A program made the translations under genes and the position numbers. From a virus (lineage: Duplodnaviria > Caudoviricetes): 64,000 nt of DNA. The DNA is taken from IMG/VR virus record IMGVR_UViG_3300031760_000005, positions 64,001-128,000 of that record; one strand, given 5' to 3'. Below, one piece after another: positions 16,840 through 56,100 of the stretch (within the stretch, counting starts at the first letter, position 1; every line of letters begins with the position of its first letter). The notes beneath the pieces were generated by a model. That model was given only the letters and a program-made list of their open reading frames with translations. It was not told the origin of the DNA and ran no database searches.

Positions 16840-17445
16840 TTATTTTTTATACCATTTAGGTGGATTATTTTCTAACGGTGAATTATTAAACATCTCCCTC
16901 ATATCTATAACATTACTAACATCCCAATCCGATATATCTTTATTAAATTCAGAACTCATAAACATTCCATACATATTAGTTACATTACTTACATCCCATT
17001 CAGATATATTTCCATTAAAATCTGAATTATAAAACATATCCTCCATATTAGTTACATTACTTACATCCCATTTAGATATATCCTGGTTAAATTCAGTATA
17101 TTTAAACATCTCACTCATATCTATAACATTACTTACATCCCATTCAGATATATCACCATTAAAATCTGAATTATAAAACATATCCCCCATATTAGTTACA
17201 TTAGATACATCCCATTTTGATATATCGCCATTAAAATCCGAATCATAAAATAATTCATTCATATCCGTTATTTTACTAACATCTATATCATTTAAATCAG
17301 CTTCATTACCACGTTCTTTTATAAGTTGTTTAATTAATTTTTCTAATTCATTACTAGTTTTTGGATGATAACTATATTTATCACCCAATTTAGTATTAGA
17401 TCCAATTTGCAATTTTTCCGTTATATAATTATTTATTCTTTTCAT
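16840..17445 (-). CDS. DUF285/BspA-like repeat protein (5 x 24-aa modules) with N-terminal capsid-targeting-like peptide
   Basis: Repeats FNGDISxWDVSNVxxMxxMFxxSx; paralogue of the 42775-45240 array; starts [10 protein letters not shown]. Confidence 0.9.
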
Positions 17446-18041: not shown

Positions 18042-19094
18042 TTACTGAATAGTAACAATAGCTACTCGACCAGATGCATCACCAGCTACACCCTTACCTT
18101 CAGCGCTTTCTACAACTACACCCTTATTCTCAAGGTAAGATTTAACTGCATCAGCTCTACGTTGTGAAAGGTTTTGATTATATCTTTCTACACCTTCAGG
18201 AGAAGCATAAGCTACAATAGAAACTGTATCTTTAATTTCATCAAGAGTTGCCTTAGCTTCATCTGTCAACTCATCAGAATCAAATGCGAAGAAAATGTAA
18301 GTTGTTTGAGGAGTAGTATTAACTGCAACTGTGTCAGTAACAATAACTTCTTTAATTACTTCAACTTCCTTAGGCTTCTTAGCAAGCTCTTCATTCAAAG
18401 CGGCGATTTCAGCATTCATTGCACCAATATCATATGTCTTGAAATGATGTGTACCATTTGAAGTCTTGAAATGGTATGTATATCCAAGACCAAGATAAAG
18501 TTGTGCAAAATCAGAACTCATAGCGAGTTGTCTAGGAGCAGTTGGAGTAACATTCCAAACTACAGCAGGACGAATACTCAAAGTATGAGCCTTTGCCTTA
18601 CCAAGATTAAAGGCGAAATCAAGACCAGTCTTAAATCCAAGACCATTAATATCATTGTCATCACCTTTAAGATAACGATGAGTCCAACCCATACCCAAAA
18701 CTGTATTTACTTCAAATAGGCGTGGAGCTCCACGATATCCTGCAAATAGATTTGAAAGATTAATCAAACCGTTTACACCTACATAATGACCACGGATAAA
18801 TCCAAAATTCAAATCTTCATTCTGTGGTACATTAAAACCTCCACCATTTGATTCAAATCCCCAAAGAGTACCTTCCAATTCAGCACCCCATACAGGAGTA
18901 AACCACTTACCTACTGCAATACCTGCACTTGGGTTAAGAGGAGTAACGTTATCAAAATTAAGGGGCATGCCAAAACCACCATTAATAGTGATATACGTAT
19001 TGTCAAGCAACTTAGGATTTTCAATCGCAATTTGTGCATTAGCACTAAACATTGTGGCAAATACAAATGCCAACATCAAAATAAATTTTCTCAT
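18042..19094 (-). CDS. OmpA-family outer membrane protein (Bacteroidales type)
   Basis: Signal peptide (SANA-Q); beta-barrel strands (AVGKWFTPVWG, LGLGYTYHF); coiled coil; OmpA C-domain FFAFDS...YASPEG..YNQNLSQRRADAV. Confidence 0.9.
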   Translation of the reverse strand: MRKFILMLAFVFATMFSANAQIAIENPKLLDNTYITINGGFGMPLNFDNVTPLNPSAGIAVGKWFTPVWGAELEGTLWGFESNGGGFNVPQNEDLNFGFIRGHYVGVNGLINLSNLFAGYRGAPRLFEVNTVLGMGWTHRYLKGDDNDINGLGFKTGLDFAFNLGKAKAHTLSIRPAVVWNVTPTAPRQLAMSSDFAQLYLGLGYTYHFKTSNGTHHFKTYDIGAMNAEIAALNEELAKKPKEVEVIKEVIVTDTVAVNTTPQTTYIFFAFDSDELTDEAKATLDEIKDTVSIVAYASPEGVERYNQNLSQRRADAVKSYLENKGVVVESAEGKGVAGDASGRVAIVTIQ

Positions 19095-26812: not shown

Positions 26813-27286
26813 TTAATTTTTAAATTTAATGTTTTTATAATATCTATCTTTACATTCTTTTATAATCTCTTTAGGGATATATGGTTGATTTATATCGCAA
26901 TAATCACAAGAGTCCGCATTATTAAAAAGCTTTGTAAGTGATATTTCTTTTAATTCAACAACTTCGTTATCAAAGTATATGCAGAAAAGCTTTGATAAAC
27001 CTTTACTATAACACTCTAATTCTTCTTCAACTACTTTATAACCAAGTGATTCTAATAATTTAATATCTTCATAATCAAATTTACAAATATTAAATAAAAA
27101 ATATTTAAAAGCGTTGAATGAAATAAATGCAAACATGGCATCATTATAATATGCTACTGCATGTGTATATGGACGTATTGTCTTTGTACCATGATTAAGT
27201 TTAGTCAATATTGCATTATGATTAAAATTATCTACACCAAAAATAATTTCATCATTTGTTGTATTTATTAATCTATAAGCTTTCAT
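26813..27286 (-). CDS. hypothetical protein
   Basis: 157 aa ORF in operon. Confidence 0.7.
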   Translation of the reverse strand: MKAYRLINTTNDEIIFGVDNFNHNAILTKLNHGTKTIRPYTHAVAYYNDAMFAFISFNAFKYFLFNICKFDYEDIKLLESLGYKVVEEELECYSKGLSKLFCIYFDNEVVELKEISLTKLFNNADSCDYCDINQPYIPKEIIKECKDRYYKNIKFKN

Positions 27287-27318
27287 AATTATTTTAAAAT
27301 AACTTGTTAAATTTCTTA

Positions 27319-27675
27319 TTATTTATTTATCGGTATGCATTGTTTCCAAAATTTTAAAAAATCTTCTTGTTCTTTAATTGTTAAATTTTCTGTTTGATAT
27401 ATATCGTTTATGGAATGAATTTTTAATTTATCATTATTTTTCGTATTAAATAAATAATAGAAAGCAACACCATTTTTATATTCTGAATCTAATAAAATTT
27501 TATCAAAAGTTGCTTCTAAATATGGTTCTTCTTCTAAACTATTTAATTTATTTCTAATAATAAATTTATCGCCATGTTGTGGATCTGGACGATTATGAAA
27601 ATCTTCCCAAACACTACAAATAAATGGATTAAAACATTGTACGAATTTATAGAATTCTTTAAATTGCTTATTCAT
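27319..27675 (-). CDS. hypothetical protein
   Basis: 118 aa; behind class-I motif. Confidence 0.7.
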   Translation of the reverse strand: MNKQFKEFYKFVQCFNPFICSVWEDFHNRPDPQHGDKFIIRNKLNSLEEEPYLEATFDKILLDSEYKNGVAFYYLFNTKNNDKLKIHSINDIYQTENLTIKEQEDFLKFWKQCIPINK

Positions 27676-28795: not shown

Positions 28796-29017
28796 TTATT
28801 CAGCATTATTTTTTGGTTTTTGTTGAATACTTGATTTTTTTTCTTTTTTAACTGTGCATTTATTATCTTCACATTCGGCATTCAACTTTTCTTTAATTTT
28901 ATTAGCTTCATCTTCAGATTCAAAGAAATTATACATAGTACCATCATTAAAATATACAGTATAAACATCATCATCTGAAGATTGTTCTTCTAAAATAAAT
29001 TCTTTTAAAGTCTTCAT
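28796..29017 (-). CDS. putative internal virion protein
   Basis: MKTLKEFILE|E, the closest match in the window to T4 IP capsid-targeting peptides. Confidence 0.75.
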   Translation of the reverse strand: MKTLKEFILEEQSSDDDVYTVYFNDGTMYNFFESEDEANKIKEKLNAECEDNKCTVKKEKKSSIQQKPKNNAE

Positions 29018-29036
29018 GATATTTCTATATATTTAT

Positions 29037-30113
29037 TTATAACAAATCAGAATCATCTCCTCTATCATCATCAGACTCAGAATCATCGGAATCATCTTTT
29101 GTAGATTTATCATTTTCTGATTTATCATTTTCTGATTTATCTTTATTTTCGTCTTTATCTTTATTTTCTTTATCTTCGTCGTCCTTCTTTTCTTCGCGTG
29201 ATTTTTTCTCACCAGTTAATTTAAATACTGCTGGATCATCTGTTTTATCTGCTTCTAACATATCAAGTACAGATTCAATAAGTTTTTTAACCTCATCTGG
29301 AAGTTTTACGAGAGAGTCTTTAGCAAAGTCTTGCACCCATATTTTTTTATCATCACCAGCAAATATATGCATAAGAGAACGTATATTTTCAGAAGATTGT
29401 CCTGTAGGAAGTTTTTTAGTATATTTCCAACGAAGAGCAATGGCTTCTTCTCCATTTTTAAATTTAATAGCAGCAAAATAATATTCACGAGGAAGTTCTA
29501 TTTGTTGAGATACAAGAAGTTCAAGTTGTTTAGCTGCTTTAACTTTATCTTTCATATTAATAAGTTCCATAACCTTTTCAAGAGTAACATCTTTCATTTC
29601 TTCTTCAGCGTCATCTTCTTTAATTATAGAACTTACCTCAAATTCGTCATAAAGTGATTCTTTTGTTTCAACTGGAATAGCCCATTCTCCATAACCCGTA
29701 GAAACTGATACTGCATTAGGTTCTTGTTGTACTGGAGCTATAGCAGTTTTAATATCTTCAGGAGAGAAATAAACAACATAATACATACCAAGATTAATCT
29801 TAGTAATTTTTGTTAATCCTTGTTCAATTATATATGAAGCTAAAGTTTTTCCATCATTAAACAAAGGTTCATTTAATACATTATTTATTGATTCTTCATT
29901 TACAAATTTTGAACTATGAAGTTTAATTGATACACCATCTTCACCTAATCCAACAACTACGCCAAGATGTACAGCAAATAAGTTTTTAACATTTGTAATT
30001 ATATTTTGAATAGGTGTATAATGATTAGTTACGCCTGTTCCAATAACACCATTACCTGGATTAGTATCTGATGTTTTACAATGTTCAACCAATAATTGAG
30101 TTAGTTTTTTCAT
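29037..30113 (-). CDS. putative internal/prohead core protein with acidic low-complexity tail
   Basis: MKKLTQLLVE|H; internal IIKE|D; D/E/K-rich C-terminus with DKSEN repeat. Confidence 0.65.
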   Translation of the reverse strand: MKKLTQLLVEHCKTSDTNPGNGVIGTGVTNHYTPIQNIITNVKNLFAVHLGVVVGLGEDGVSIKLHSSKFVNEESINNVLNEPLFNDGKTLASYIIEQGLTKITKINLGMYYVVYFSPEDIKTAIAPVQQEPNAVSVSTGYGEWAIPVETKESLYDEFEVSSIIKEDDAEEEMKDVTLEKVMELINMKDKVKAAKQLELLVSQQIELPREYYFAAIKFKNGEEAIALRWKYTKKLPTGQSSENIRSLMHIFAGDDKKIWVQDFAKDSLVKLPDEVKKLIESVLDMLEADKTDDPAVFKLTGEKKSREEKKDDEDKENKDKDENKDKSENDKSENDKSTKDDSDDSESDDDRGDDSDLL

Positions 30114-30144
30114 ATTTTATACTATTATATAATTTATGTTTATG

Positions 30145-30157
30145 TAATTAAAAATAA
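30145..30157 (-). promoter_or_regulatory. putative class-II promoter TTATTTTTAATTA
   Basis: Recurrent motif upstream of capsid-tagged genes. Confidence 0.5.
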
Positions 30158-30165
30158 CTATAAAT

Positions 30166-30831
30166 TTAAAATTGTCTCCAAAAATGAAATATTTGTTGGA
30201 GTGTAGCTTTTGAAAAGTGCCCTTCAGTAAAACACGCTGTTGGAATTAAACGTGTTGGTAATACATATGAAGCGCCTCTTAAAACTGGAATATACATTTT
30301 AACGCCAAATCCAATTTTTGCATTTGTTTTTGCTAAATGTTTTACTGCTTGATAAGATATCCATGTATTTGGTTTACCAGTAACTTCATTGAAATTTTTA
30401 TCAAAAAATGGTTTAAAATGCTGATAAACTGCTTCAATAATTCTTGTTCTGGTAAATGGTGGATAATAATGTAAATTAATACCAACTTCGCGAATATTAC
30501 CGTCATCCGTTCTTGTTATTCCACAAAATAATGTTAAAGGAGTAGCGTCATAATATTCAAGTTCTTCTTTAAATTTTGGTTGAGAATAATGAAATAATAC
30601 AATTTGACCAGGAAGAAGATATCTTTTTGTTGGTTTATTCAATTTTAATAATTCTTGATATGCTAATTTAGAACGAATAACAGTTGGACGTTTAGCTAAT
30701 GGATGATTATCAATAGCTTCATTAATGTGAAAATCTTTAATCTCATCTTCACTATATATTTTTCTATCTAAATCTTTTAGATTAAATACATGTCCTAATG
30801 TTGTTTGTTCTGGTTTATAAATTATTGGCAT
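30166..30831 (-). CDS. T4 gp2-like DNA end protector protein
   Basis: PGQIVLFHY.....K..L.YYD..PL...GINLHYYPP pattern typical of the gp2 family. Confidence 0.7.
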   Translation of the reverse strand: MPIIYKPEQTTLGHVFNLKDLDRKIYSEDEIKDFHINEAIDNHPLAKRPTVIRSKLAYQELLKLNKPTKRYLLPGQIVLFHYSQPKFKEELEYYDATPLTLFCGITRTDDGNIREVGINLHYYPPFTRTRIIEAVYQHFKPFFDKNFNEVTGKPNTWISYQAVKHLAKTNAKIGFGVKMYIPVLRGASYVLPTRLIPTACFTEGHFSKATLQQIFHFWRQF

Positions 30832-31142
30832 ACTAAAATCATTAAAATATTTATAAATGTACCTATAACTGAACCAATTATATCAGCTACAATATCTTTA
30901 AATTCAACTTTAGTTTTACGTAATTTTAAATCAATAATATATTCTTTAAATATTCCTATTAAAACTGTTATAACAAATGATATGCCTAAACTTATATAAG
31001 GATTTAATTTAAAACTTAAAAAAATTATAAATAATATATTAGTAATTAATGTTGAACAATATGAATGTAAAAATACATCTTTAGTAGTTGAATCTACAAA
31101 ATTATATATTTTATCAATAATTTTTAATAAAAATTCTTTCAT
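30822..31142 (-). CDS. small multi-TM membrane protein (VanZ/YfiM-like)
   Basis: Three hydrophobic segments with KE..D and DIVADIIG motifs. Confidence 0.6.
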   Translation of the reverse strand: MKEFLLKIIDKIYNFVDSTTKDVFLHSYCSTLITNILFIIFLSFKLNPYISLGISFVITVLIGIFKEYIIDLKLRKTKVEFKDIVADIIGSVIGTFINILMILVCQ

Positions 31143-31616
31143 TTATTTATCATAATATTTTTGAATATAATGAAATACATCTGATATATATTTCCCTTGA
31201 TTTTCTTTTATTGATTCTTTGCCAAACCATTTATATTCAGTATGTTCTTTCGACAATTTTATTTCTGGTTTAGATTCCATTTCTATAATAAAATATTCAG
31301 TATAAGAAACTACTTTATCATCATTACCAGGTCCTAAATGTTCCTGTTTTCCAAAATATTTCATTGAATATTCTTCATTAAATGATAATGTTATTCCAGT
31401 TTCTTCTTTTATTTCTCTAATTAGTGCATCTTTAGTTGTTTTATCTGATTCATTTACTGAACCTCCAACAAACCCCCATTTACCTTTAAATAAATCTACA
31501 TAATTAGATCTTTTAAGTAAAAGAATTTCGTCAGTATCTTTATTGACTAATATTCCATCTACATAATGTTTTATTTCATCTTTACTTTCTTTTATATAGT
31601 CAATTAATTGTTTCAT
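31143..31616 (-). CDS. Nudix hydrolase with capsid-targeting-like N-terminus
   Basis: Nudix box GG.V...D.....A..REIKEETGI and LSKEHTEYKW; starts MKQLIDYIKE|S. Confidence 0.88.
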   Translation of the reverse strand: MKQLIDYIKESKDEIKHYVDGILVNKDTDEILLLKRSNYVDLFKGKWGFVGGSVNESDKTTKDALIREIKEETGITLSFNEEYSMKYFGKQEHLGPGNDDKVVSYTEYFIIEMESKPEIKLSKEHTEYKWFGKESIKENQGKYISDVFHYIQKYYDK

Positions 31617-31632
31617 TATCTATTATATTTAT

Positions 31633-32058
31633 TTAATATCCAATACATAAACTCATGTCATATGTATTAAATGGATCTTCAACTGTACCAGCAGCATGAC
31701 AATTAAGTGTTCCTACCATAAATGGATTTTCAGAACCTTTAACAAATATTTCTACTTTATATTGTTTCCATTGAGACATTCCATCCTTTGATTTACGATA
31801 TCCGCCATCATCTGGAGCTACCGAAACATCATATTCATGCTCAGGATTTTTTATAGTTTTTAAAGCGTCATCAATATCTTGTCTAACTAATTTAACACCA
31901 GCCCAATTATCATCGTGATAATAATGACCTGTGGTTTTAGTTTTATCTAATTGTTTATAGATGGCATTTTGAATTTTTTTCTTTTCTGGAGCTTTAATAG
32001 ATTTATCCAATTCTCCATTAGAATATGATTCAAAAATTTTATCTTTTAATGTTTTCAT
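31633..32058 (-). CDS. putative internal virion protein
   Basis: MKTLKDKIFE|S. Confidence 0.7.
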   Translation of the reverse strand: MKTLKDKIFESYSNGELDKSIKAPEKKKIQNAIYKQLDKTKTTGHYYHDDNWAGVKLVRQDIDDALKTIKNPEHEYDVSVAPDDGGYRKSKDGMSQWKQYKVEIFVKGSENPFMVGTLNCHAAGTVEDPFNTYDMSLCIGY

Positions 32059-32089
32059 TGACGTTATTCAATATTTTTTTATAAATCTT

Positions 32090-33259
32090 TTAATCCATTG
32101 CACCAAATCCATCTACAGGTTTGCCATCATCACCATCTAATCCTTTATCTTGTAATTTGACTTTACCATAAGATGTTCCATTAGCGCCAATAACTTCAAA
32201 TTCACATGTTGTATGCATTCCTGAAAGCCAACTACCGGTATTACGTGATAATTCTTTAATTTCAGGCATTTTATTGTCAGATTCTAAATAAGCTTTTGCA
32301 GCTAATTTATAAAGATTATCAACACCCCAAGATATACTAGAATAACTACCGAATGATTTTTCCAAAACCTTTTGAACATCATCTTTAACTTTTTCAATAG
32401 CTTCTGCTAATTTTTTAGCTTCTTCATCTTTCTTTATTTTTTCTGCAAATATCTTTTCCCATTTCTTATAGTTTTGTTCTGTTGCTTCTAAGTCATCTTC
32501 AACTGTATCTAATATAGAAATAATATCTTTATATAAATCTGATTTTTTAAACGCTTCACGTAATTTCTTTATTTTCTTAGAATCTTTTTCATATTCAGCT
32601 TCAGCCTTTTGCCATACTTTATTAGATTTTTTACGCATGGCTTCTTCATTTCTTGAATGAGATGTTTGATCCCACATTTCTTGATATTTACTATTTACCG
32701 AATCAGTTTTTAAAATGTTAAATCTATCATTAAATTCTGGAATATTAACATTATAAGCTTGGGCAATAACACTTAATGCAAGATAAATAGAAAAAGTAAA
32801 TCCTGTTGATTCATACCAGAATAATGTAACATCTTTATCCCATGAATTTCTTTTTTCTGGTTGACGTGCTTTTGTAAAACTTGCAGCTTGAATATCATCT
32901 GTTTCTAATGCAATTCTTGCTTCTTTTGTTGCCTTTTCTACAAAATCAAAGAAATCTTTATTGCCATTTTCATCTTTTCCATAGAAATTATCAAATGTAC
33001 AATTTTGGGCATTAAGAATAAAATTATTATGACCTTGTTTAGAATTCATTGCTGTTTTAAGTTTATCTACAAGAATTTCAAAATTCTCGGTATTTATTTT
33101 AATTACAGATTCTTCATATTCTTTATATTTATTCTTCATTTCTTCCTTTGTATTTTTAGGCATGCCCGGATAGAAAAATGGTTTACTCATTGATTGTGGT
33201 AAATCTAAATATTTACCATCTTCTTTTGATTCAAATAAAAAATCAATTAAATGTTTCAT
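32090..33259 (-). CDS. putative internal virion protein (coiled-coil rich)
   Basis: MKHLIDFLFE|S; 389 aa. Confidence 0.7.
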   Translation of the reverse strand: MKHLIDFLFESKEDGKYLDLPQSMSKPFFYPGMPKNTKEEMKNKYKEYEESVIKINTENFEILVDKLKTAMNSKQGHNNFILNAQNCTFDNFYGKDENGNKDFFDFVEKATKEARIALETDDIQAASFTKARQPEKRNSWDKDVTLFWYESTGFTFSIYLALSVIAQAYNVNIPEFNDRFNILKTDSVNSKYQEMWDQTSHSRNEEAMRKKSNKVWQKAEAEYEKDSKKIKKLREAFKKSDLYKDIISILDTVEDDLEATEQNYKKWEKIFAEKIKKDEEAKKLAEAIEKVKDDVQKVLEKSFGSYSSISWGVDNLYKLAAKAYLESDNKMPEIKELSRNTGSWLSGMHTTCEFEVIGANGTSYGKVKLQDKGLDGDDGKPVDGFGAMD

Positions 33260-33265
33260 TATTTA

Positions 33266-33892
33266 TTATTCAATATTTTTATATCTTTGTTCGACATCAC
33301 CATTTGCTCTAATACGAATACGTTCCTGAACGGATGTATGATTCATTCTTTCTCCTCTAAAAATTGTTTTAATTATTATATCAACCTTTGTACCATTTTC
33401 TTTTATCATCCAAACTGCCCATAAATTCATGGTTCTTGGTCTAGCGCCGCAATATTCAACTTCGCCATTTTTATCTTTGTTATTATTTAACCAGCATTGA
33501 CATTCTATTGTCCATGCATCTACTTTACGTTGTTTATATTCAAATGGCTTAAACTTGCCATCATAGTTCATTTCCATTATGTCATCCCAAGACCATCGGA
33601 ACATATTAACAATTTCGTATTGACCAATTCGCTTACCACCATCACCACCTTTTTCTACTGGTCGATCTTGACGTTGCGTAGCATGATCTCCCATTCTTAA
33701 TTCATCACCATCATTAGATGTCCAAACGACGCGATTTCCACTTTTAGTATGATGCCAATCATTACCTTCTAATATAAATTGTTGGAATTCATCATCAAGT
33801 AATTCTAAAGATGATTCATCCAATTGAAAAATAATTCGACCAAGTTTATTCTCGAAATTATTTCTATTTAAAAATTCGGTAATGTTTTTCAT
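33266..33892 (-). CDS. putative internal virion protein, possible DUF4258/BECR-like RNase domain
   Basis: MKNITEFLN..., FILE|G near residue 40; HA..R..R...I...EI...IIIKTI pattern. Confidence 0.5.
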   Translation of the reverse strand: MKNITEFLNRNNFENKLGRIIFQLDESSLELLDDEFQQFILEGNDWHHTKSGNRVVWTSNDGDELRMGDHATQRQDRPVEKGGDGGKRIGQYEIVNMFRWSWDDIMEMNYDGKFKPFEYKQRKVDAWTIECQCWLNNNKDKNGEVEYCGARPRTMNLWAVWMIKENGTKVDIIIKTIFRGERMNHTSVQERIRIRANGDVEQRYKNIE

Positions 33893-33895
33893 TGT

Positions 33896-34285
33896 TTACC
33901 AACCACATTTTTCGGAATTAGCATAATCCCACTCAATCATGTAATCTTCCTCTTCTTTAGTTAATGTTTCTTGATCACTAACACGGGCTATTAAACTACC
34001 AGTAACAAATTTAGCTAAACGTTTTCTTCCTTCTTTTGATAATTTATTTGTTGCTTTAGTTACTTTAAGAATAGCTTGGCATAATTTAGCTACAACTGAA
34101 GATGATTCAAGTTTTGCAATGTCAAATATACCCTTTTGGTGTTTCTTTATTAAATTTTGAACTAATGGCCAATATTGTTGTTTATATATTGTCTCATTAT
34201 TATCCATCTCCATACATGCATCAAAAATTATCTTATTATCAGCATCTTGAGATGATTCTGTTAAATATGTTTTTATATCTTTCAT
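33896..34285 (-). CDS. putative internal virion protein
   Basis: MKDIKTYLTE|S. Confidence 0.7.
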   Translation of the reverse strand: MKDIKTYLTESSQDADNKIIFDACMEMDNNETIYKQQYWPLVQNLIKKHQKGIFDIAKLESSSVVAKLCQAILKVTKATNKLSKEGRKRLAKFVTGSLIARVSDQETLTKEEEDYMIEWDYANSEKCGW

Positions 34286-34290
34286 AATAA

Positions 34291-34569
34291 TTAAAATATA
34301 CTTGGTATTTTTGATAAAATAGAATTTGAAAAATCAAGATGCCATTTATCGATTTTATCTTTCTTATGAGCTTCACAGTATTTTGATATTTCATCAAATT
34401 CAACATTCATTATTTCAACGCCATCTTTATCGATTTCAGTTACATCTGATTGATCTTTGCCATTACCTTTCCAAATTAGAATTTCACGAACTCTATTTTC
34501 GGTATAATCCCAAAGACACCATTTACCTTTTGGAGTTGATTCATTTATAATATTAGTTAATGTTTTCAT
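34291..34569 (-). CDS. putative internal virion protein
   Basis: MKTLTNIINE|S. Confidence 0.7.
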   Translation of the reverse strand: MKTLTNIINESTPKGKWCLWDYTENRVREILIWKGNGKDQSDVTEIDKDGVEIMNVEFDEISKYCEAHKKDKIDKWHLDFSNSILSKIPSIF

Positions 34570-34586
34570 ATTTAATTTAGATATTT

Positions 34587-35090
34587 TTAATCTTCTAACT
34601 CAACAACTAATTTCTTTGTTAGATTTTCTTTTTGTTTATTTAATTCATTTATATTTTCCATTAATTTAGATATTTCATCATCAATTTCACGAATTTGATC
34701 AGCATATTTTGATTTAATAGCACCAATTACAGCATTTTTTGAAATACCGGCAAAATACCATGTACCATCTCCATGAATTCGTTTAATAGAAAATTCTTTA
34801 TTTTTTTCATTCGGTTGATCAAATATCAAAAAATGGCTAATTTTATATGGATTTGATTCTAAATCAACACATGTTGTATTAATTTTTCCTTTGGCAAATG
34901 AATCTTCTATACCTCTATTTTCAACAGATTTAATTTTTATTTGTGAACATTTATGTTTAGAATTTTCTTTACTAATTCTATCCATAACTTTATCTGTATC
35001 ATGTACAACATATAATATCGTACCTTTATCGATATTTGTATATATGTTTGGCAAATTTCCTTCTTTAATTAAATGACTTAAATTTTTCAT
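34587..35090 (-). CDS. putative internal virion protein with C-terminal coiled coil
   Basis: MKNLSHLIKE|G. Confidence 0.7.
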   Translation of the reverse strand: MKNLSHLIKEGNLPNIYTNIDKGTILYVVHDTDKVMDRISKENSKHKCSQIKIKSVENRGIEDSFAKGKINTTCVDLESNPYKISHFLIFDQPNEKNKEFSIKRIHGDGTWYFAGISKNAVIGAIKSKYADQIREIDDEISKLMENINELNKQKENLTKKLVVELED

Positions 35091-35099
35091 AAATAATAT

Positions 35100-35399
35100 T
35101 TATACTTGTATTTCATTGAAATTTTTAATTTTAAATTTTCCAGATACAGTATCTTCAGCATATAAAGTTACTTCATATTTTGTATCTATATAGTCTCCAA
35201 CAAATACTAATTTATCATCAGATGATTCTTCTTCATCAAAATCAAAACCTAATTTGTACATTACATCTTTAATATCGTCAATTTTGGTCATTTTAAATCC
35301 ATGTTTAATGCTACCAAACTCTCTAAGTGCAAGTCCAATTTCTTCATGAAGATCTTCATCTTGAGTTGATTCTAATATAAATTGTTTAATGTCTTTCAT
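35100..35399 (-). CDS. acidic putative internal virion protein
   Basis: MKDIKQFILE|S. Confidence 0.7.
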   Translation of the reverse strand: MKDIKQFILESTQDEDLHEEIGLALREFGSIKHGFKMTKIDDIKDVMYKLGFDFDEEESSDDKLVFVGDYIDTKYEVTLYAEDTVSGKFKIKNFNEIQV

Positions 35400-35428
35400 A
35401 ATCTTTATTTATATAATTATTTATTGTT

Positions 35429-35857
35429 TTATCTTTTACAATCAAAGAAATAATGAGTATCTGTTTCTGATAAATAAATAAACATTATTTTTTGATAATC
35501 ATCCAATGCACAAACTATTTCAGAAGTATCATCTAATTTATTTTCGGATTTAAGTTTATCAATTATCTTTAAAGCTTTTTTAGGAATTTTTCTATCACCA
35601 TCTTGTATTTTATCTAAAATATTTGTTACTTCGATTACTTTACAATTGTTATTTATCCAGTTTGCCATTTGCGTTGCATCCCACATATGATCTTTATCCA
35701 CTGTGTTTTTGCAATCTCCAAAGTATTTATAATTTCTATAAGATGGTACTCCATCATACATTTCTGGGTTTTCTAATGATGAATCTATAGGAATATTATT
35801 TAAATCAAGTTTTTCAATTAAAAATGATTCAAACATATAATCAATTAAATTTTTCAT
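35429..35857 (-). CDS. putative internal virion protein
   Basis: MKNLIDYMFE|SFLIE|K. Confidence 0.7.
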   Translation of the reverse strand: MKNLIDYMFESFLIEKLDLNNIPIDSSLENPEMYDGVPSYRNYKYFGDCKNTVDKDHMWDATQMANWINNNCKVIEVTNILDKIQDGDRKIPKKALKIIDKLKSENKLDDTSEIVCALDDYQKIMFIYLSETDTHYFFDCKR

Positions 35858-39332: not shown

Positions 39333-40730
39333 ATGAAAAACTTAGGTCAATTTATTAATGAAAATGATTTAAAAAAAGTTGAAGGTAATGCACCTAAACC
39401 AGATCCAAAGAGTAAAAATAGAATTAAATGGGCACTTGATGAACCAACTAATGATGACGCATCAGATGATATTGATATCCATTCTAAAGAAAATACAAAA
39501 TCTGTAAAACAATTAATTGATAAATTTAGAACAGAAGAACCTTTCTTTATACAAGGTGAAGCTGGTTGGGGTAAAACATCTATCGTAAAAAAACTTGCTA
39601 AAAAATTTGGTAAAAAAGTTATTACAGTATATCTTGATAAAGCTGAGGCAACAGACCTTGGTGGTATACCTGTTCCTGTTGAAGGTAATAAATCAAAAGC
39701 TAAAGTAAAAAATGCTGTAGGTGAATTAGAAGAAAGAGAATTTGCTGCCCAAATTAAGGCTATGCCATCTTGGGCAAAAATAATGTATGATAATCCAGAT
39801 ACAGACTTCTTATTATTCTTTGATGAAATGAACCAAGCTATGCCTGATGTAATGAATGCTCTTATGCCTATTGTTTTGGAAAACGAAATTTGTGAAATTA
39901 AGTTCGACAACTTTTTTGTTGGTGCAGCAGGTAACTATGAACATGAAAACAGAGGAGCTATTTCTGAATTATCTGGACCACTTAAATCTCGTTTCAAACC
40001 AATCATTGAATGGACATCAGGTGAAGAAGCTTGGCCACAAGCATTTAAACATTTACACGCAAAATGGGATAAATATTTGTCAAAAGAATTTATTAACTTA
40101 TTTGAAAAAAATGGCGCTGAAATATTTGAAAACCCACGTGAACTTGAGCATAAAGTATTTCAATATATTTATCGTATAAAAATGACTAATGATGATGGAT
40201 ATGAAGACGATAATGATGCAGAAAAATATTTATGGCGTCTTGAAGATTTAGCTAAAGAAAATTTATCAAGAACAGCAAAAGCTAAATTAAGCGAATTAGC
40301 TGATGCTATGTTTGCATTTGTTGCTGGTACAGATTATAATGGAAAAACATCTAAACCAAAACGTGAATCAAATAAAGATATTAATATGATTCCTGAACAA
40401 GTAAGAGTTACTGTAGAACAAGCAATGAAAACTGGTTATCAAAGTATAAAAGTTGGTGATAAAGAATATAAATTTGGTATTTCTAAAGAAAATATTGGAG
40501 AAATAGTTAATGAGAAAGAGTGTAATGCAGAAATGTTACAAAAACTTATTAAGAATTTAGAATTAGGAGGTAAGAAATTTAAATATGAAAAATCTCCTGA
40601 TTGGAAAAAACTTGGTTTAGAAGATCCATTAGATGATAAATGGAATTTTAAAATTGGCTCAGATACAAAATTAGGTAATAATTCAGAACCTAAAAAGAAA
40701 AAAACTATGAAAGATTACGCAAATTCATAA
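39333..40730 (+). CDS. MoxR-like AAA+ ATPase with capsid-targeting-like N-terminus
   Basis: Walker A GEAGWGKT, DLGGIP, Walker B LLFFDEMN, AAGN, PLKSRF; starts MKNLGQFINE|N. Confidence 0.9.
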   Translation: MKNLGQFINENDLKKVEGNAPKPDPKSKNRIKWALDEPTNDDASDDIDIHSKENTKSVKQLIDKFRTEEPFFIQGEAGWGKTSIVKKLAKKFGKKVITVYLDKAEATDLGGIPVPVEGNKSKAKVKNAVGELEEREFAAQIKAMPSWAKIMYDNPDTDFLLFFDEMNQAMPDVMNALMPIVLENEICEIKFDNFFVGAAGNYEHENRGAISELSGPLKSRFKPIIEWTSGEEAWPQAFKHLHAKWDKYLSKEFINLFEKNGAEIFENPRELEHKVFQYIYRIKMTNDDGYEDDNDAEKYLWRLEDLAKENLSRTAKAKLSELADAMFAFVAGTDYNGKTSKPKRESNKDINMIPEQVRVTVEQAMKTGYQSIKVGDKEYKFGISKENIGEIVNEKECNAEMLQKLIKNLELGGKKFKYEKSPDWKKLGLEDPLDDKWNFKIGSDTKLGNNSEPKKKKTMKDYANS

Positions 40731-40751
40731 AAAATATTTAAGGATTAATAT

Positions 40752-41030
40752 ATGGAAGTTTTAGATAATGTTATCTATTTTGATAACGATGATGAATTTT
40801 ACGATTATTGCGTAGAACCTAAATTAATAACGATTCCATTTGTTGATAAAAATGGTGATACTAGATATTATACAGATTTTAATTTTACTAATGTATATAA
40901 TAATGATGTTAAAGATGGAAAAATTTTTATTATAAAAGATGAAAATTCGCAAATTTATAAACATAAAGCAGTATCATATCGTACTATAACAAAAGAAATT
41001 TCTAATTTAGAACCTTGGTATAAAAATTAA
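40752..41030 (+). CDS. hypothetical protein within AAA-VWA operon
   Basis: 92 aa ORF between the AAA and VWA genes. Confidence 0.7.
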   Translation: MEVLDNVIYFDNDDEFYDYCVEPKLITIPFVDKNGDTRYYTDFNFTNVYNNDVKDGKIFIIKDENSQIYKHKAVSYRTITKEISNLEPWYKN

Positions 41031-41041
41031 TAAGTAAATTT

Positions 41042-42694
41042 ATGGAAATTAAAAGTTCATTACTAAATTCAGATACATTTTCAGAAGTTAAAAAAAGTTT
41101 AATAGAAGTTTCAGAAATTGATAATAGACAGGATTTTAGAGTTGACGTAATAGAATTTATTGACTTCAATTCAGATAATAATGATGACCAATTCTTCTGG
41201 GACATGCTAGAATTTGTAAGATTTCTTAATCCTGCTGATAATAGTGTTGCATACACTACTCCAAATCATTTAATTTATTTAAATGCACCAAGTCATAATT
41301 ATGATACAGAAAACGATTGGGAATTTATATATGATCATGAATGTTTACATCAATTATGGGACACATTTGCTGTAGGTGAGGAAATAAAAACAAATGGAAT
41401 TAAATATGACCATCAAGTATTAAATATCGCATCTGACTGTGTTATTAATGATTATCTCTCATATATTCGTAAAAAGAAAGAACCAGAAGGATTAATAAAT
41501 AGAGAATATTTACAAAATGAATATGGAGTTACATATGATCGTAAAGTAGATACTCAATATAGCTTATATCTTAAATTACTGGAACATGCTGAAGAACTAA
41601 AAAAAGATAAACGTTGTCAAAATGATATTGATCAAAATAATAAAAAGAATGATCAACAAGAAAAAAATAACGGAAATAGTAATAGTAATAATTCAAAAAA
41701 CTCAAATTCAAAAAATAGTAATTCAGATAAAGAAAATAACGGAGGGAAAGAATCAGAAGATAAAAATAATGAAAAAGGTGGTAAAAATACCGATAGTAAG
41801 ACAAATGATAAAGCTGATAAAGAAAAAATAGACAATAATGATAAAGAAAAGGGAGGTAAAGGTAAACAAGCAGGCGAAGGGGCATCTAGTGATACATCTC
41901 AAACATCTTTAGACTTAGATGAAATTCGTAAAAATGCTGAAGCTATTATTAAGAAATATCAAAATAAAATTGGTGGTGATTTTGGTAAGTTTATTGAAAA
42001 ATGTAAATCAGCAAAAACACTTAGAGAATCAGGATTAGTAGTAAAAGTTAATAAAGCTACATCTGCATGGAATAGTTCTCTTCAATCTTATTGTAGTGCA
42101 TTTATAAAAAGTAAAGTATTTGCGTTACATCGTCAATATAAACGTACATATACTCGTGTAAAACGTGGTCATGGTATTGTTAAATTTGGAGAACCTATTA
42201 TTCCAGGCAAGAAGATTTTAGATAATAAATTGTTAATCAAAACTGCATTTTATGTTGATAGATCTGCAAGTATGTCAGGTGTAATTGATGAAGTATTTGA
42301 AGCGGCGTATATTATTGCAGAAGGATTGAAAAAACAATTTAGTAAAGATAAAGTTGTAGAAGATCTTGTATTTAAAATGCTTGCATTTGATGATGATATT
42401 CGTGAAGTTAAATGGGGAAATAAAATGAATGTAGGAGGCGGTACATGTCCATTTGACGCAATTTTGAATTACATTAGAAAGAATACAAATGAATATATGA
42501 TTAATATTATTATTACCGACGCAGAATTTGACATAAACGAAAATAAAATTACTAAATTCTTGCAAGATATTGATGGTTGTGTAATATTCGTTACAAATAG
42601 TACTTCTTCAGATGTTAAAGAAATTGCTCAAAAGAAAGAAAATAAACTTAAATTATTTTATATACAAGCAGATAATAATTTTACAACGGATTAA
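41042..42694 (+). CDS. DUF2201-like HEXXH metallopeptidase + VWA domain protein
   Basis: VAYT, HECLH, NIASDCVIN, low-complexity N/K/D linker, MIDAS VDRSASM, GGGT, IIITD. Confidence 0.88.
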   Translation: MEIKSSLLNSDTFSEVKKSLIEVSEIDNRQDFRVDVIEFIDFNSDNNDDQFFWDMLEFVRFLNPADNSVAYTTPNHLIYLNAPSHNYDTENDWEFIYDHECLHQLWDTFAVGEEIKTNGIKYDHQVLNIASDCVINDYLSYIRKKKEPEGLINREYLQNEYGVTYDRKVDTQYSLYLKLLEHAEELKKDKRCQNDIDQNNKKNDQQEKNNGNSNSNNSKNSNSKNSNSDKENNGGKESEDKNNEKGGKNTDSKTNDKADKEKIDNNDKEKGGKGKQAGEGASSDTSQTSLDLDEIRKNAEAIIKKYQNKIGGDFGKFIEKCKSAKTLRESGLVVKVNKATSAWNSSLQSYCSAFIKSKVFALHRQYKRTYTRVKRGHGIVKFGEPIIPGKKILDNKLLIKTAFYVDRSASMSGVIDEVFEAAYIIAEGLKKQFSKDKVVEDLVFKMLAFDDDIREVKWGNKMNVGGGTCPFDAILNYIRKNTNEYMINIIITDAEFDINENKITKFLQDIDGCVIFVTNSTSSDVKEIAQKKENKLKLFYIQADNNFTTD

Positions 42695-42717
42695 TATTTA
42701 GTATTATAATATATATG

Positions 42718-42748
42718 AAACTGGTACATTTTTATGTACCAGTTTTTT
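42718..42748 (+). terminator. intrinsic terminator
   Basis: AAACTGGTACAT/ATGTACCAGTTT stem with T-run. Confidence 0.8.
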
Positions 42749-42774: not shown

Positions 42775-43386
42775 ATGAAACAATTAAATAATTATATAAT
42801 AGAAAAATTACAAATTGGTTCTAATACTAAGCTGGGCGATAATTATTATCATCCTAAAACCACAGATGAATTAAAAGAGTTAATTAAAAAACTTATAAAA
42901 GAACGTGGTAATAATGCTGATTTGAATGATATAGATACTTCAAAAATAACTAATATGTCTTATTTATTTTATAAGTCAGATTTTAATGGGAATATATCTC
43001 GATGGGATGTTAGTAATGTTACTACTATGAATGAAATGTTTTATAATTCTAAATTTAATGGAAATATATCAGATTGGGATGTTAGTAAAGTTACTGATAT
43101 GGAATCTATGTTTTATAATTCAGAATTTAATCAAGATATATCAAATTGGGATGTTAGTAATGTTCAATATATGCATGCTATGTTTCAATCTTCTAAATTT
43201 AATGGTGATATATCTAAATGGGATGTAAGTAATGTTAAAGATATGACTTCTATGTTTAATGATTCAAAATTTAATCAAGATATATCAAACTGGAATGTTA
43301 ATAATGTTAAATATATGATTAACATATTTAAAAATTCTCCATTAGAAAAAAATACACCTAAATGGTATAATGAAAAGAATAAATAA
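42775..43386 (+). CDS. DUF285/BspA-like repeat protein A (5 modules)
   Basis: 24-aa repeats FNxxISxWDVSxVxxMxxMFxxSx; MKQLNNYIIE|K. Confidence 0.9.
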   Translation: MKQLNNYIIEKLQIGSNTKLGDNYYHPKTTDELKELIKKLIKERGNNADLNDIDTSKITNMSYLFYKSDFNGNISRWDVSNVTTMNEMFYNSKFNGNISDWDVSKVTDMESMFYNSEFNQDISNWDVSNVQYMHAMFQSSKFNGDISKWDVSNVKDMTSMFNDSKFNQDISNWNVNNVKYMINIFKNSPLEKNTPKWYNEKNK

Positions 43387-44200
43387 TTATATAATAGAAA
43401 AATTACAAATTGGTTCTAATACTAAGCTGGGCAATAACTATAATTATTGCCCTAAAACTAAAGATGAACTAAAAGAGTTAGTGCAAAAATTAATTAAAGA
43501 ACGTGGTAATGAAGCTGATTTAAATGATATTGACACATCAGAAATAACTGATATGTGTGGAATATTTATAAATTCTCAATTTAATGGTGACATATCAAAA
43601 TGGGATGTTAGTAATGTTACTACTATGAATGAAATGTTTTATAAGTCTGAATTTAACAGTGACATATCAAAGTGGGATGTCAGCAATGTTAAAAATATGA
43701 GTTGGATGTTTAAAAACTCTCAATTTAATGGCGATATAAAAAATTGGGATGTTAGTAATGTTACTACTATGAATGAAATGTTTTATAATTCTAAATTTAA
43801 TGGAAATATATCAGATTGGGATGTTAGTAATGTTATTGATATGTGTGGTATGTTTGCAAAATCTAATTTTAATGGTAATATTTCTAGTTGGGATGTTAGT
43901 AAAGTTACTGATATGCGTGGTATGTTTCATAAATCAAAATTTAATGGAAATATATCTAAATGGGATGTTAGTAAAGTTACTCATATGAAAACTATGTTTT
44001 GTGACTCTGAATTTAACGGCGATATATCAAAGTGGGACGTTAGTAATGTTACTGATATGTGGTTTATGTTTACGGGTTCTAAATTTAATAAAGATATATC
44101 AAACTGGGATGTAAGTAAAGTTACTGATATGGAGGGGATGTTTAATGTTTCTCCATTAGAAAAAAATCCGCCTAAATGGTATAATGAAAAGAATAAATAA
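43370..44200 (+). CDS. DUF285/BspA-like repeat protein B (8 modules)
   Basis: Same caps, 8 repeats; 17-nt overlap with upstream paralogue. Confidence 0.9.
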
Positions 44201-44726
44201 TTATATAATAGAAAAATTACAAATTGGTTCTAATACTAAATTTGGTGATAATTATAATTATCACCCTAAAACTAGAGATGAATTATATGATTTAATTGAA
44301 AAACTCATAGAAGAACGTGGTAATGAAGCTGATTTGAATGATATAGATGTTAGTAAAATAACGGATATGAATGAATTATTTTATGATTCGGATTTTAATG
44401 GCGATATATCAAACTGGGATGTTAGTAATGTTACTGATATGGGTTGGATGTTCGCATATTCAAAATTTAATAGCGATATATCCCAATGGGATGTAAGTAA
44501 AGTTACTGATATGAGAGGTATGTTTTGTGATAGCAAATTTAATGGTGATATATTTAAATGGGATGTTAGTAATGTAACTAATATGGAGGATATGTTTTAT
44601 AATTCAGATTTTAATGGTGATATAAAAGATTGGGATGTTAATAATGTAAAAAATATGGAAGATATATTTTTAAATTCTCCTTTAGAAAAAAATCCACCTA
44701 AATGGTATAATGAAAAGAATAACTAA
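44184..44726 (+). CDS. DUF285/BspA-like repeat protein C (4 modules)
   Basis: Same caps, 4 repeats; 17-nt overlap. Confidence 0.9.
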
Positions 44727-45240
44727 TTATATAACGGAGAAATTACAAATCGGTTCTAATACTAAGCTGGGCAATAACTATAATTATTGCCCTAAAACAC
44801 GAGATGAATTAAAAGAATTACTTAAACAACTTATAAAAAAACGTGGTAATGAAGCTGATTTGAATGATATAGATACATCTAAAATAACTGATATGTCAAG
44901 TTTGTTTCAACTTAGCGTATTTAATGGTGATATATCAGAATGGAATGTTAGTAATGTAACTAATATGAAATATATGTTTGCATATGCAAGATTTAACGGA
45001 GATATATCTAAATGGAATGTTTCTAAATTAAATAATATGTTTGAAATTTTTTATAATTCGGAATTTAATGGAGATATATCACAATGGGATGTTAGCAATG
45101 TTACTAATATGACTTACGCATTTTATGGGTCTAAATTTGATGGCGATATATCAGAATGGAATGTTAAAAATGTTAAAAATATGGAAGATATATTTTTAAA
45201 TTCTCCATTAGAAAAAAATCCACCTAAATGGTATAAATAA
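44710..45240 (+). CDS. DUF285/BspA-like repeat protein D (4 modules)
   Basis: Same caps, 4 repeats; 17-nt overlap. Confidence 0.9.
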
Positions 45241-45266
45241 AAAAGAGGAACAAAAGTTCCTCTTTT
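45241..45266. terminator. bidirectional intrinsic terminator
   Basis: AAAAGAGGAAC-AAAA-GTTCCTCTTTT between convergent genes. Confidence 0.8.
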
Positions 45267-53166: not shown

Positions 53167-56100
53167 ATGAATAATAGTAAAGATTCATTAAAAGAATATT
53201 ATGTAAATCTACAATCATTATATAATAATGCAGTAAATATGCTTACTGCTATAAATCAAAGTTTAGCATCTACATCATCAGAAATTACTGTTAGTGTAGC
53301 AGATACTGATGATGCTATTACAAAAATTAGAATTCCATCATTTTTATATTTAGAAAATAAAATTGAACAGTTAAGTAATAATTTTAATCATTTATTTGAA
53401 ATGCCTTCTTCTGGTCAAGCATGGTTTTCTAATGAAAATAATATGTTTAAACTTAAAATGGTGCAAAGTAATATTGCACCAATTACACCGTCAATAGATT
53501 CAACAAATGTTGTTGCATCAATTAAAGATAATAATTTTTTAAAAGATTTAGTTAATCCTAAAACATATCTTAAACTTAATGTCAATAATATTCCTAATAA
53601 TATTGAAAAGGTTTATATGAAAAAAATCGTCATTTTAGACGATAATGTATATAATGAATTAGAATCAATAAAAGATACTCTTACTTCATATCAAGATTAT
53701 GTAGCTGCTTTATCAAATCTTACTAAGGGCGTACAATATGAAGAATATGAAAATACTCTTAATATGCCTATTCGTCGCGATAAATTTGATTCTGAATTTA
53801 AAATTATAGAAATTCCTACATTAGATGGTGGAAATCCATATGTAAATACAAATAGTGATGAATATTATAATCATGCTGAAACGCATTTAATATACGAAGT
53901 TAGATTAGATACATTAATTTATCATGATCATGAAGATCCATCAATAGAATATCAATTAAAAGTTGGAGATTATTTGACATTAATTGATAATTTTACTGTT
54001 TTTAAAATAAAAAATATTTCTAAATACAAAGATTCAATTACAAATTCTATTGTTACTTTAGAAGAAATTAGTGGACATACAGCATTACAAGATGTTACAG
54101 CCAATAATAATATGGTGTTAAAATTATATCAACATAATTATTCTGATTATAATTATGTAGAAGTACCATTAGAAGAAAATCCTTATATTATAATATTTTT
54201 ATGTTTTATAGATTCTAATATTCGCAGTACATTTTCTAATCCAATCTTTTTGAATTTAAATGATATTTACATGTACAATTCAGATGGTACATTAATGAAA
54301 AATCCAAAAGATGGAACTAATATAACTTATATGTCATATTACAATCAATATTGTACTAATATTGGTGATATAATTCAAGGCATTTCTAATGTAATATATC
54401 CACAATTTACTAATATAAATAATGATGCATTAAATATTTTAGAAAATAGTGAAAGTCTTAAACAACTTGTAACAAATTCTATAAATAAAGAAAATATTGA
54501 AGTTTCTTGTATAAATAATCATATATTTGACGATGAAGCTTCAGAAAAAATAAATACACTTAATGCAGAAAAGAACAAGTATAAAGTTAGCATAACAGAT
54601 ATGCAAGCTAATATTGATAACATATATAATCAATTAACAAATACAGATTTTAATAATGATTTAAGTATAACACAAGAATCACTTAAAACAAAACTTGATC
54701 AATATTATACAGAAAGAACTCATTTAAACAAAGAATATATTAATTGTGTAAATCTTATTGCTGCGGCTAAAGCAGAAAATAATATTACTAATACATCTAA
54801 ATATAGAATAAGAGGTTTATTTGATGATAGTATTGTAAGTGATTACATTAAAGCAAATGTTTCTTCAAAATGTGAATTAATTGGAATAGATGTTGAATAT
54901 AAATATATTACAGTATCATCTAATCAATCTAATGTTACGCAAATAAACAATAGCATATTTACTAATTGGAATAAATATAAATCAATAGACAAAGAACGTA
55001 TATTAAAATTTGATGAAAATAATTTATATACTATTGAATATGATGAACGTCCATTTTCAGATAATTCCGTAAAATGGAATCAAATAGATATTCCTATTAA
55101 TCAAGGTGAAGATGTTGTAATAAGAATACGTTATAAATATAACATTGGTCAACCATTTATGAATTTATATTCTCCATGGTCAGATAATGTTACATTTAGT
55201 TTTCCTGAAAAATTCACTTCAAAAAATGAAATAATAGATATTATTGCCGAAAATGACAATGATGTAATTAATGCTAAGTTCTTAGGAACTCTTATTAATG
55301 ATGGTTATCAAGAACACGTAAACAATAAGATTATTGATAATTCCCAAGTATATTATCATATGCCTGAAAATATATATTCTGGTTTTAATACACCAGAAAA
55401 TAAATTAATATCATTAAAAGATAAACTTATTAGTATGTCTAATGATATTGACAAATATAAAAATACATTAAATAGTTCAACAAATAATAATTATAAAGTT
55501 TATTTAGAGTATGATAATAACTTAATAGAATTACATAATTCTAAAGAAAACATTATTAACTTTAATAATTCTGATGTTACATTATCTGAATTGTTTACAA
55601 AGAAAACTATGAATATTATCATTAAAAATATTGGAGAAACTTCTCTTAATTTATATAGTATATTTAGTGGTAATATGTCAGTTCCTCTTTTAAATACTAA
55701 TGTGACATATATAAATAATACAGTTGAACATTATCAAAGAGTACCAATACTTATTAATGGTGATAATGATATTAATACATCAGTATATGCGCAAACACTT
55801 GGTCAATGGATATATTTTAGAGAAAATAATCCATATACATTAAAAGATGTATATTATAATAGTAATTCACAATTATATAGTGATACAAATATATTCTTAG
55901 CGAATATAAGTAATACAGAAAATCAAACTAATTATCAATTTAAATCATCGCTTAAAGATTATTTAAAAACTGCATATCAAGTACTTTTACCTTACAAACC
56001 TAAAACTACAAATTATCAAAGTGTTGATATATTATTTAATGCAGTTAGAAATAAAATAATGAGTGGAAATTATTCAACATCTGGTTCAATTGATATTAGT

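Follow-up and report, generated by a model that had tools for sequence, protein, structure and literature searches.

A tagged multigene family of small leucine-rich repeat proteins in a large T4-like phage and its possible route into the phage head

What might a phage do with several adjacent genes for small repeat proteins that share the same two ends and differ mostly at a few recurring positions in between? The question is raised by positions 42775-45240 of a 64,000-nucleotide stretch (the window) of the viral record IMGVR_UViG_3300031760_000005, where four such genes stand in tandem, with a fifth at 16840-17445. The record is a linear IMG/VR virus of 157,695 bp with 26% G+C, of which the window covers bases 64001-128000; it is 55% complete according to CheckV, and the phage is large, T4-like, and from the gut or rumen. 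The genes are well supported as a phage-specific multigene family of small soluble solenoids with constant caps, built of leucine-rich repeats (LRRs) of the DUF285/PARCEL type. Their N-terminal tag is best read, from its sequence, as a T4-type capsid-targeting signal, and we hold at an even balance the whole explanation in which a family of LRR binders bears a T4-type tag, is packaged in the head, and is ejected from it. The members in the window and their tags are as follows.

42775-43386, plus strand: paralogue 1, 203 aa, with a leader (residues 1-21), an N-cap helix, module 0, five 24-aa modules and the C-cap SPLEKNTPKWY (DUF285, E 6e-52).
43370-44200, plus strand: paralogue 2, 276 aa, eight modules (DUF285, E 3e-81), with a 17-nt overlap with paralogue 1.
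44184-44726, plus strand: paralogue 3, 180 aa, four modules (DUF285), with a 17-nt overlap with paralogue 2; the protein chosen for modelling.
44710-45240, plus strand: paralogue 4, 176 aa, four modules (DUF285, E 1e-41), with a 17-nt overlap with paralogue 3; the final gene of the array.
16840-17445, minus strand: orphan paralogue 5, 201 aa, five modules (DUF285, E 1e-54), flanked by a 94-aa open reading frame (ORF) and a 3727-aa gene.
42775-42804, 43370-43399, 44184-44213 and 44710-44739, plus strand, and 17416-17445, minus strand: the 10-codon N-terminal tag.

All five window proteins match Pfam DUF285 (PF03382) with E values of ~1e-42 to 3e-81 (142-270 bits, cut-off 25), and all five match the NCBIfam PARCEL repeat TIGR02167 (79-127 bits, cut-off 30). 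The tryptophans are spaced exactly 24 residues apart, giving 5, 8, 4, 4, and 5 modules (26 in all), and Tandem Repeats Finder reports a 72-nt period. Both ends are conserved, with an N-terminal part of ~73 residues and a fixed C-cap, and the C-terminus ends PPKWYK. Direct reading of the hydrophilic, cysteine-free N-terminus found no signal peptide, lipobox cysteine, hydrophobic N-terminal stretch, or anchor. A first-pass annotation of the window had described five tagged paralogues with these module counts, constant caps, strongly varying strings around an M...MF core, and no signals for surface display, and each of these descriptions agrees with the ORFs, the tryptophan spacing, and the positional variation reported below; the observation is real and was understated. 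Three more paralogues lie outside the window (genome 31060-32049, 32053-32736, and 43826-44362), bringing the record to eight. The first of these (329 aa) has an extra C-terminal region of ~100 residues beyond degenerate modules, and the second has a divergent C-cap containing a cysteine.

An AlphaFold2 model of the 180-residue paralogue 3, made with 51 family sequences, has a mean predicted local distance difference test score (pLDDT) of 89.2. Residues 1-22 score below 50 and include a short helix (2-11), a helix occupies residues 31-48, and a confident repeat body extends to residue 172; the leader (1-22) is predicted to be disordered and detachable, and residues 23-180 to form the solenoid. 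The best structural matches in VIA-align are LRR proteins in 50 of 50 cases (Z 7.3-10 over 110-158 residues), and include Leptospira LRR proteins, the Bacteroides BspA-like 4fs7, TpLRR, PcpA, internalins, and variable lymphocyte receptors (VLRs). Every match listed by Foldseek is also an LRR protein yet weak (E >0.1), with none in the PDB at E 0.001 or better, and a PDB sequence search matched no solved structure. The LRR-type solenoid assumed in the annotation is thus what the model predicts. Because the match to a Mycoplasma PARCEL lipoprotein model starts at residue 25-28 and those of cellular DUF285 proteins start no earlier than residue 23, the capping helix is generic to DUF285 and only residues 1-22 are special to this family; within the record, the 22-residue leader is confined to the eight family genes. 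Each protein comprises a 10-residue tag, a flexible linker of ~12 residues, the capping helix, a cap-associated module followed by variable 24-residue modules, and the fixed C-cap.

The family extends well beyond this record. A 410,106-bp relative (G002, 97% complete), whose copy of the 371-aa gene adjoining the array is 58% identical, carries 44 copies in eight arrays, with 1-9 modules each (4-8 in the window's five genes) and occupying ~7% of the genome; a 200-kb relative has none. A query of residues 1-62 brings out 207 metagenome proteins, 110-215 residues long, with the same leader and N-cap; all of them contain DUF285, none is named in any source, and some sit on contigs of 220-465 kb. 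Residues 1-54, searched against 1.84 billion representatives, recover 50%-identity clusters, at least 217 of them, almost all aligning from their own residue 1. None of the 13 matches in a set with one genome per prokaryotic species covers residues 1-22 (0/13). Prevotella phage Lak-B8 has a single, TAG-recoded DUF285 region, and the DUF285 matches in Vibrio C-ZP2022 and Shewanella SXP01 were set aside as giant repeat proteins, not the small tagged form; the searches turned up no relative in culture. The literature searched contains no small soluble DUF285 form with a T4-like leader, specific to huge T4-like phages and present in dozens of copies. Even if it is not packaged, the family ranks with the largest expansions of paralogues known from phage genomes (~7% of 410 kb), and the same literature holds no description of it.

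The variation among modules is sharply positional. With the framework numbered 1-24 as D-I-S-x-W-D-V-S-N-V-x-x-M-x-x-M-F-x-x-S-x-F-N-G, the Shannon entropy of the record's 40 regular modules is 2.7-3.5 bits at positions 14, 15, 18, and 19, 1.7-2.4 bits at positions 4, 11, 12, 21, and 24, and at most ~1.2 bits elsewhere, with most framework positions under 1 bit; in the 272 modules obtained when G002 is included, positions 14, 15, 18, and 19 reach 3.5-3.9 bits. The variable strings quoted in the annotation are all there. The four positions are nearly without leucine, isoleucine, valine, methionine, and proline and are rich in tryptophan (3.1-fold), cysteine, arginine, histidine, tyrosine, and glycine, residues whose codons hold more G+C than the A+T-rich genome favours. 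The M13-x-x-M16-F17-x-x-S20 pattern is amphipathic, and we infer that the four positions face the solvent, where they would stack into an exposed binding stripe along the solenoid.

Module number and sequence both change between genomes. The orphan gene has a positional orthologue in a bovine metagenome contig (L032) that is ~91% identical to the window over an OmpA-like gene, a pair of small ORFs, and the beginning of the 3727-aa gene; the orthologue has 153 residues and three modules, compared with five in the record. Between the two, the proportion of differing non-synonymous sites (pN) is 0.54-0.69 at the hypervariable positions and 0.03-0.05 in the framework, where the synonymous proportion (pS) is 0.26-0.33, with a pS of 0.10-0.26 in the flanking genes. 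Replacement changes are in excess at the four hypervariable positions; with a single pair and 40 non-synonymous sites, this excess is not separable from the effect of gene conversion by other paralogues. When protein pairs share at least 80% identity, they differ by 0.22 per site at hypervariable positions and 0.03 per site in the framework (~7-fold). Two exact shared tracts point to exchange between copies: one of 86 nt joins 43003-43088 (gene 1, module 1-2) to 43745-43830 (gene 2, module 3-4), which are non-equivalent positions, and one of 77 nt is common to gene 3 and the orphan, 27 kb apart. A comparison among paralogues gives a framework pN of 0.12-0.14 in every bin, against a pS of 0.27-0.64 in the three bins of greatest divergence. 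The ratio of non-synonymous to synonymous change (dN/dS) among paralogues was nevertheless dropped as a selection test: pS of 0.3-0.6 is near A+T-biased saturation, hypervariable pN is saturated at ~0.65 in every bin, and binning by framework pS is circular.

We read the family as growing and changing through tandem duplication, unequal recombination in which entire modules are gained or lost, and patchy gene conversion, along with fast turnover of the hypervariable positions. The annotation's recombinationally diversified set of binding proteins fits this in its main elements (a multigene LRR solenoid family, periodic variation, three versus five modules, and shared exact tracts), with the binding surface itself read from sequence patterns.

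Expansion and shuffling of this kind could also reflect the selfish spread of PARCEL repeat DNA with little or no specific function, the variable positions being merely unconstrained. PARCEL repeats are patchily distributed, vary in copy number, and are mobilised within genomes (PMC2996958), and the copies considered here range from 0 in the 200-kb relative through one in Lak-B8 to 44 in G002. The array also stands at a synteny break, where relatives keep the genes beyond the 371-aa gene and lack the array and its upstream neighbours; no array lies beside the 371-aa gene in 7/7 related viral loci and 62/65 metagenome loci, and because these loci are at most 72% identical and only 3 have any DUF285 gene nearby, the four-gene array is without a usable orthologue. 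The repeat DNA may have a weak dyad symmetry as well, seen only as short, overlapping, 78% complementary arms around GATATATC (I15 and related pairs). Spread without function sits poorly, however, with the integrity of the copies, all 8 + 44 of which are intact ORFs, with strong purifying selection on the framework (pN 0.03-0.14 versus pS ~0.3-0.6), with a leader and caps conserved over at least 217 clusters, and with hypervariable positions that are non-random, being enriched in W, R, H, Y, G, and C in spite of an A+T mutational bias and almost devoid of aliphatic residues and proline. We consider purely selfish spread clearly improbable.

The N-terminal tag was searched for as M-[KR]-x-[LIVM]-x-x-x-[LIVMF]-x-E, with position 7 left free. 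It stands at 33 ORF starts in the record, all at the first methionine (33/33), among 1005 methionine positions with at least 50 downstream codons. In these 33 ORFs, M1 and K2 are followed by L/I at position 4 (33/33), Y/F at position 7 (22/33), I/L at position 8 (32/33), and E10. In G002 the pattern occurs at 81/863 first methionines versus 8/2240 internal ones. Independently of any pattern, glutamate is 2-4-fold commoner at residue 10 than at adjacent positions, and the joint motif, counted in non-DUF285 ORFs alone, is found in register 26 times versus 0-2 times when shifted (G002: 44 versus 0-3). About 25 non-DUF285 ORFs of the record start with the 10-residue tag, ten of them in one minus-strand block (window 28796-35857). 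Among the ~25 are a NUDIX hydrolase (31143-31616, minus strand) and an AAA_5 ATPase (39333-40730). The G002 orthologues of the NUDIX hydrolase and of two other proteins, 45-63% identical, keep the tag, with F at position 4.

The tag resembles the capsid-targeting sequence of phage T4 at its functional positions 4, 7, 8, and 10. The first 10 residues of T4 IPIII suffice for head loading, with residues 4 and 7 acting in targeting and residues 8 and 10 in processing by gp21 (PMC9026906), and the T4 internal proteins are diverse anti-restriction proteins with only the capsid-targeting sequence in common (PMC3012670). The leader of the present family is portable too: in G002 a 19-residue form, MKKLxxFIxEKFRLSKDNL (variant MKKLxxFIxEKFRLxKDxL), stands on three unrelated bodies beside arrays.

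27106-27648, 53741-54193 and 54197-54700 of G002: leader-bearing non-LRR proteins (L012, L013).

Head genes of the T4 type are also at hand. The record encodes a T4-type portal (PF07230, E 8e-79), and in G002 a Peptidase_S77 prohead protease fused to a long [L/I]-x-E-rich segment is followed by a Gp23 capsid protein, with 17 tagged ORFs directly upstream of the protease and capsid genes. The reading of the tag as a T4-type capsid-targeting sequence, which we infer as the best available, draws on the tag statistics, the match to the T4 determinants, the portal here, the protease and capsid genes in G002, and the portability of the leader.

On this reading, the tag would direct the proteins to the core of the prohead and be cut off after Glu10 by a prohead protease of the gp21 type, and the mature binders would be ejected with the DNA and bind variable host proteins, much as T4 IPI* blocks a restriction enzyme. 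These steps are of unequal strength. What the sequences show is the family with its architecture, predicted fold, variation pattern, and tag statistics. From sequence, we put packaging of the LRR proteins at roughly even odds, and surface exposure, cleavage, and ejection are proposed on the same footing; a host-defence target is speculative and drawn by analogy. The annotation's statement that the proteins are packaged and injected is accordingly plausible, given a T4-like tag in strict N-terminal register, the portal, and the protease and capsid genes of the relative; its further proposal that they neutralise host defence proteins is unsupported, being speculation by analogy with T4 IPI*.

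Several observations weigh against packaging and diversification as set out here. No gp21-type protease and no gp23-type capsid gene were detected in the 55%-complete record, and their presence in the phage itself is presumed from G002, whose copy of the neighbouring gene shares 58% identity. The LRR proteins carry net charges of -19 to +1 (median -7) and are acidic, unlike the basic internal proteins classically known from T4. The tagged AAA_5 ATPase and NUDIX hydrolase are less obvious head cargo. Some G002 members bear a second tag in front of the leader (tandem tags occur in the genes at 250947, 292831, and 139330), and the conserved N-terminus extends ~12 residues past Glu10, beyond the need of a plain 10-residue tag. 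As to diversification, the paralogue dN/dS is saturated and uninformative, and the excess in the orthologue pair could stem from gene conversion instead of positive selection.

Some of this would also suit binders that are never packaged and act in the host cytoplasm during infection, with the N-terminal motif serving translation initiation without a Shine-Dalgarno sequence, regulated proteolysis, or another localisation. No Shine-Dalgarno-like sequence precedes the tagged genes, MK- starts are common in A+T-rich genomes, and the tagged enzymes, the acidic charge, and the undetected prohead protease all point the same way. A motif of initiation or turnover does less well with conservation at the protein level of L/I 4, Y/F 7, I/L 8, and Glu 10, the T4 determinant positions, with variable residues between them; nor does it fit the register specificity (26 versus 0-2), the clustering of tagged genes beside the protease and capsid genes in G002, or a leader predicted to be disordered and detachable. 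We judge an unpackaged role to be rather unlikely, if one to be taken seriously.

A third possibility places the proteins on the outside, as virion-surface or secreted adhesins of the BspA, PARCEL, or internalin type that aid attachment to cells, mucus, or polysaccharide. DUF285/BspA proteins that have been characterised are mostly found at the surface, to judge from NCBIfam names, large DUF285 proteins adjoin structural genes in the Vibrio and Shewanella jumbo phages, and two DUF285 proteins have been found in particles of the giant Aureococcus anophagefferens virus, AaV (PMC7507832). The proteins described here, however, have no signal peptide, lipobox, anchor, or capsid or tail attachment domain and are only 176-276 aa long, and a T4-type tag would put them inside the head rather than outside. 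Such a role seems very unlikely indeed.

Returning to the packaged binders, a broader picture can be drawn for the huge T4-like phages of gut and rumen Bacteroidota, which we offer tentatively and regard as unlikely to hold in full. Their heads would be loaded with a germline repertoire of up to ~44 tag-delivered hypervariable LRR binders, ejected as a ready-made library of antibody-like inhibitors against polymorphic host defence proteins and constantly renewed by module recombination. If the tag does load heads, dozens of distinct repeat-scaffold binders would be delivered at infection, a far broader strategy than the single inhibitor of T4 IPI*. The family would also offer natural LRR scaffolds that are small, soluble, and poor in cysteine, with four mapped variable positions per module, and the short portable leader would be a candidate for loading cargo into phage heads.

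The array is bounded on both sides by hairpins.

42717-42746, both strands: strong, G+C-poor hairpin with T-runs on both strands, terminator-like, 13 pairs; it closes the upstream 550-aa gene and sets the array apart.
45244-45263, between the array and the convergent 371-aa gene: hairpin AGAGGAAC-AAAA-GTTCCTCT, read directly.

The scan that listed the first hairpin found 2 terminator-like sites versus 0.4 expected in shuffles. The second is absent from the list of the consensus terminator scan and, from its sequence and position, is probably a terminator common to the array and the convergent gene. Within the array, an identical 17-nt overlap, ATGAAAAGAATAAATAA, occurs at all three junctions (43370-43386, 44184-44200, and 44710-44726), where the upstream gene closes with ...W Y N E K N K stop and the downstream gene opens, in the +1 frame, with M K R I N N; its recurrence suggests translational coupling. 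An overlap of the same length is found in an unrelated metagenome contig carrying P0003 (genes 1-456 and 440-901). A near-perfect 24-nt palindrome, GGGCAATAACTATAATTATTGCCC, lies at 43429-43452 and 44769-44792, in the linker-coding part of paralogues 2 and 4, and these are the two copies in which cysteine replaces histidine in YNYxP.

A late-promoter motif upstream of the tagged genes was sought and rejected, k-mer enrichment being weak (at most 3.4-fold for A/T-rich words). The enrichment of TAAATGG is uninformative because the word belongs to the conserved C-cap coding sequence upstream of array genes. In a sigma-70-type scan, sites were rarer than in shuffles, and the recurring TAGAAA-17-TATAAT sites fall in C-cap coding sequence.

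Directly upstream of the array are the tagged AAA_5 (MoxR-like) ATPase and the 550-aa protein (the pair spans 39333-42694), the latter having a weak PHROG match to 'HNH endonuclease' and, at ~41570-41900, a long insert of low complexity in which K, N, S, and D abound; the pair is absent from the syntenic site in relatives. Near the orphan, the 3727-aa ORF (5534-16717, minus strand) contains long internal repeats and many predicted membrane segments, and its N-terminal 257 codons, compared with L032, give pN 0.113 and pS 0.095, with no signal of purifying selection. The OmpA-family protein (18042-19094, minus strand) has a signal-peptide-like N-terminus and is conserved in L032 (pS 0.26, pN 0.06).

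Among known systems, the giant virus AaV encodes a DUF285 expansion that takes in 13% of its coding regions and of which two members are known from virions (PMC7507832); it differs in being a eukaryotic giant virus, in lacking a T4-type tag, and in the architectures and sizes of its proteins. The lamprey and hagfish VLRs, to which the annotation likened the family, likewise have 24-residue LRR modules, variable in number, between an N-cap and a C-cap, and 6bxa (Z 8.0) and 2o6q (Z 7.8) are among the structural matches. The cap-module-cap architecture and the module length are where this likeness holds, whereas somatic assembly, donor cassettes, and Cys-knot caps have no counterpart. The phage copies are complete germline genes without a stalk or membrane anchor, and no incomplete genes or cassette fields were seen, all 8 copies of the record and 44 of G002 being complete with leader, caps, and modules; the phage N-cap consists of one helix and contains no more than one cysteine, and the C-cap contains none. 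The variable residues lie in the M-x-x-M-F-x-x-S segment and not in the canonical LxxLxL strand, and there is no sequence kinship beyond the LRR fold, so that the VLR label serves as an analogy only.

The PARCEL/DUF285 proteins were described in 2010 by Roske et al. as having a variable number of amphipathic ~25-residue repeats, with a hydrophobic framework and hypervariable hydrophilic positions, and as undergoing horizontal transfer and intragenomic shuffling (PMC2996958), and the pattern of variation in the phage family is therefore typical of DUF285. Repeat motif, variable repeat number, framework and hypervariable hydrophilic positions, paralogue families, intragenomic shuffling, and capping helix are all shared, and the phage proteins differ in having no membrane-targeting sequence, in being smaller than most (176-276 aa), in their 22-residue leader, and in reaching up to 44 copies per genome. 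Set beside the internal proteins IPI, IPII, and IPIII of T4, the phage bodies differ, being acidic LRR solenoids where those of T4 are small and basic, and the phage family, known here from genes alone, is far larger. What the two have in common is a 10-residue tag with a conserved Lys2, a hydrophobic or aromatic residue at each of positions 4 and 7, Ile or Leu at position 8, and Glu at position 10, the placing of that tag on many unrelated, fast-evolving small proteins, and head genes of the T4 type, with the portal here and the protease and capsid in the relative.

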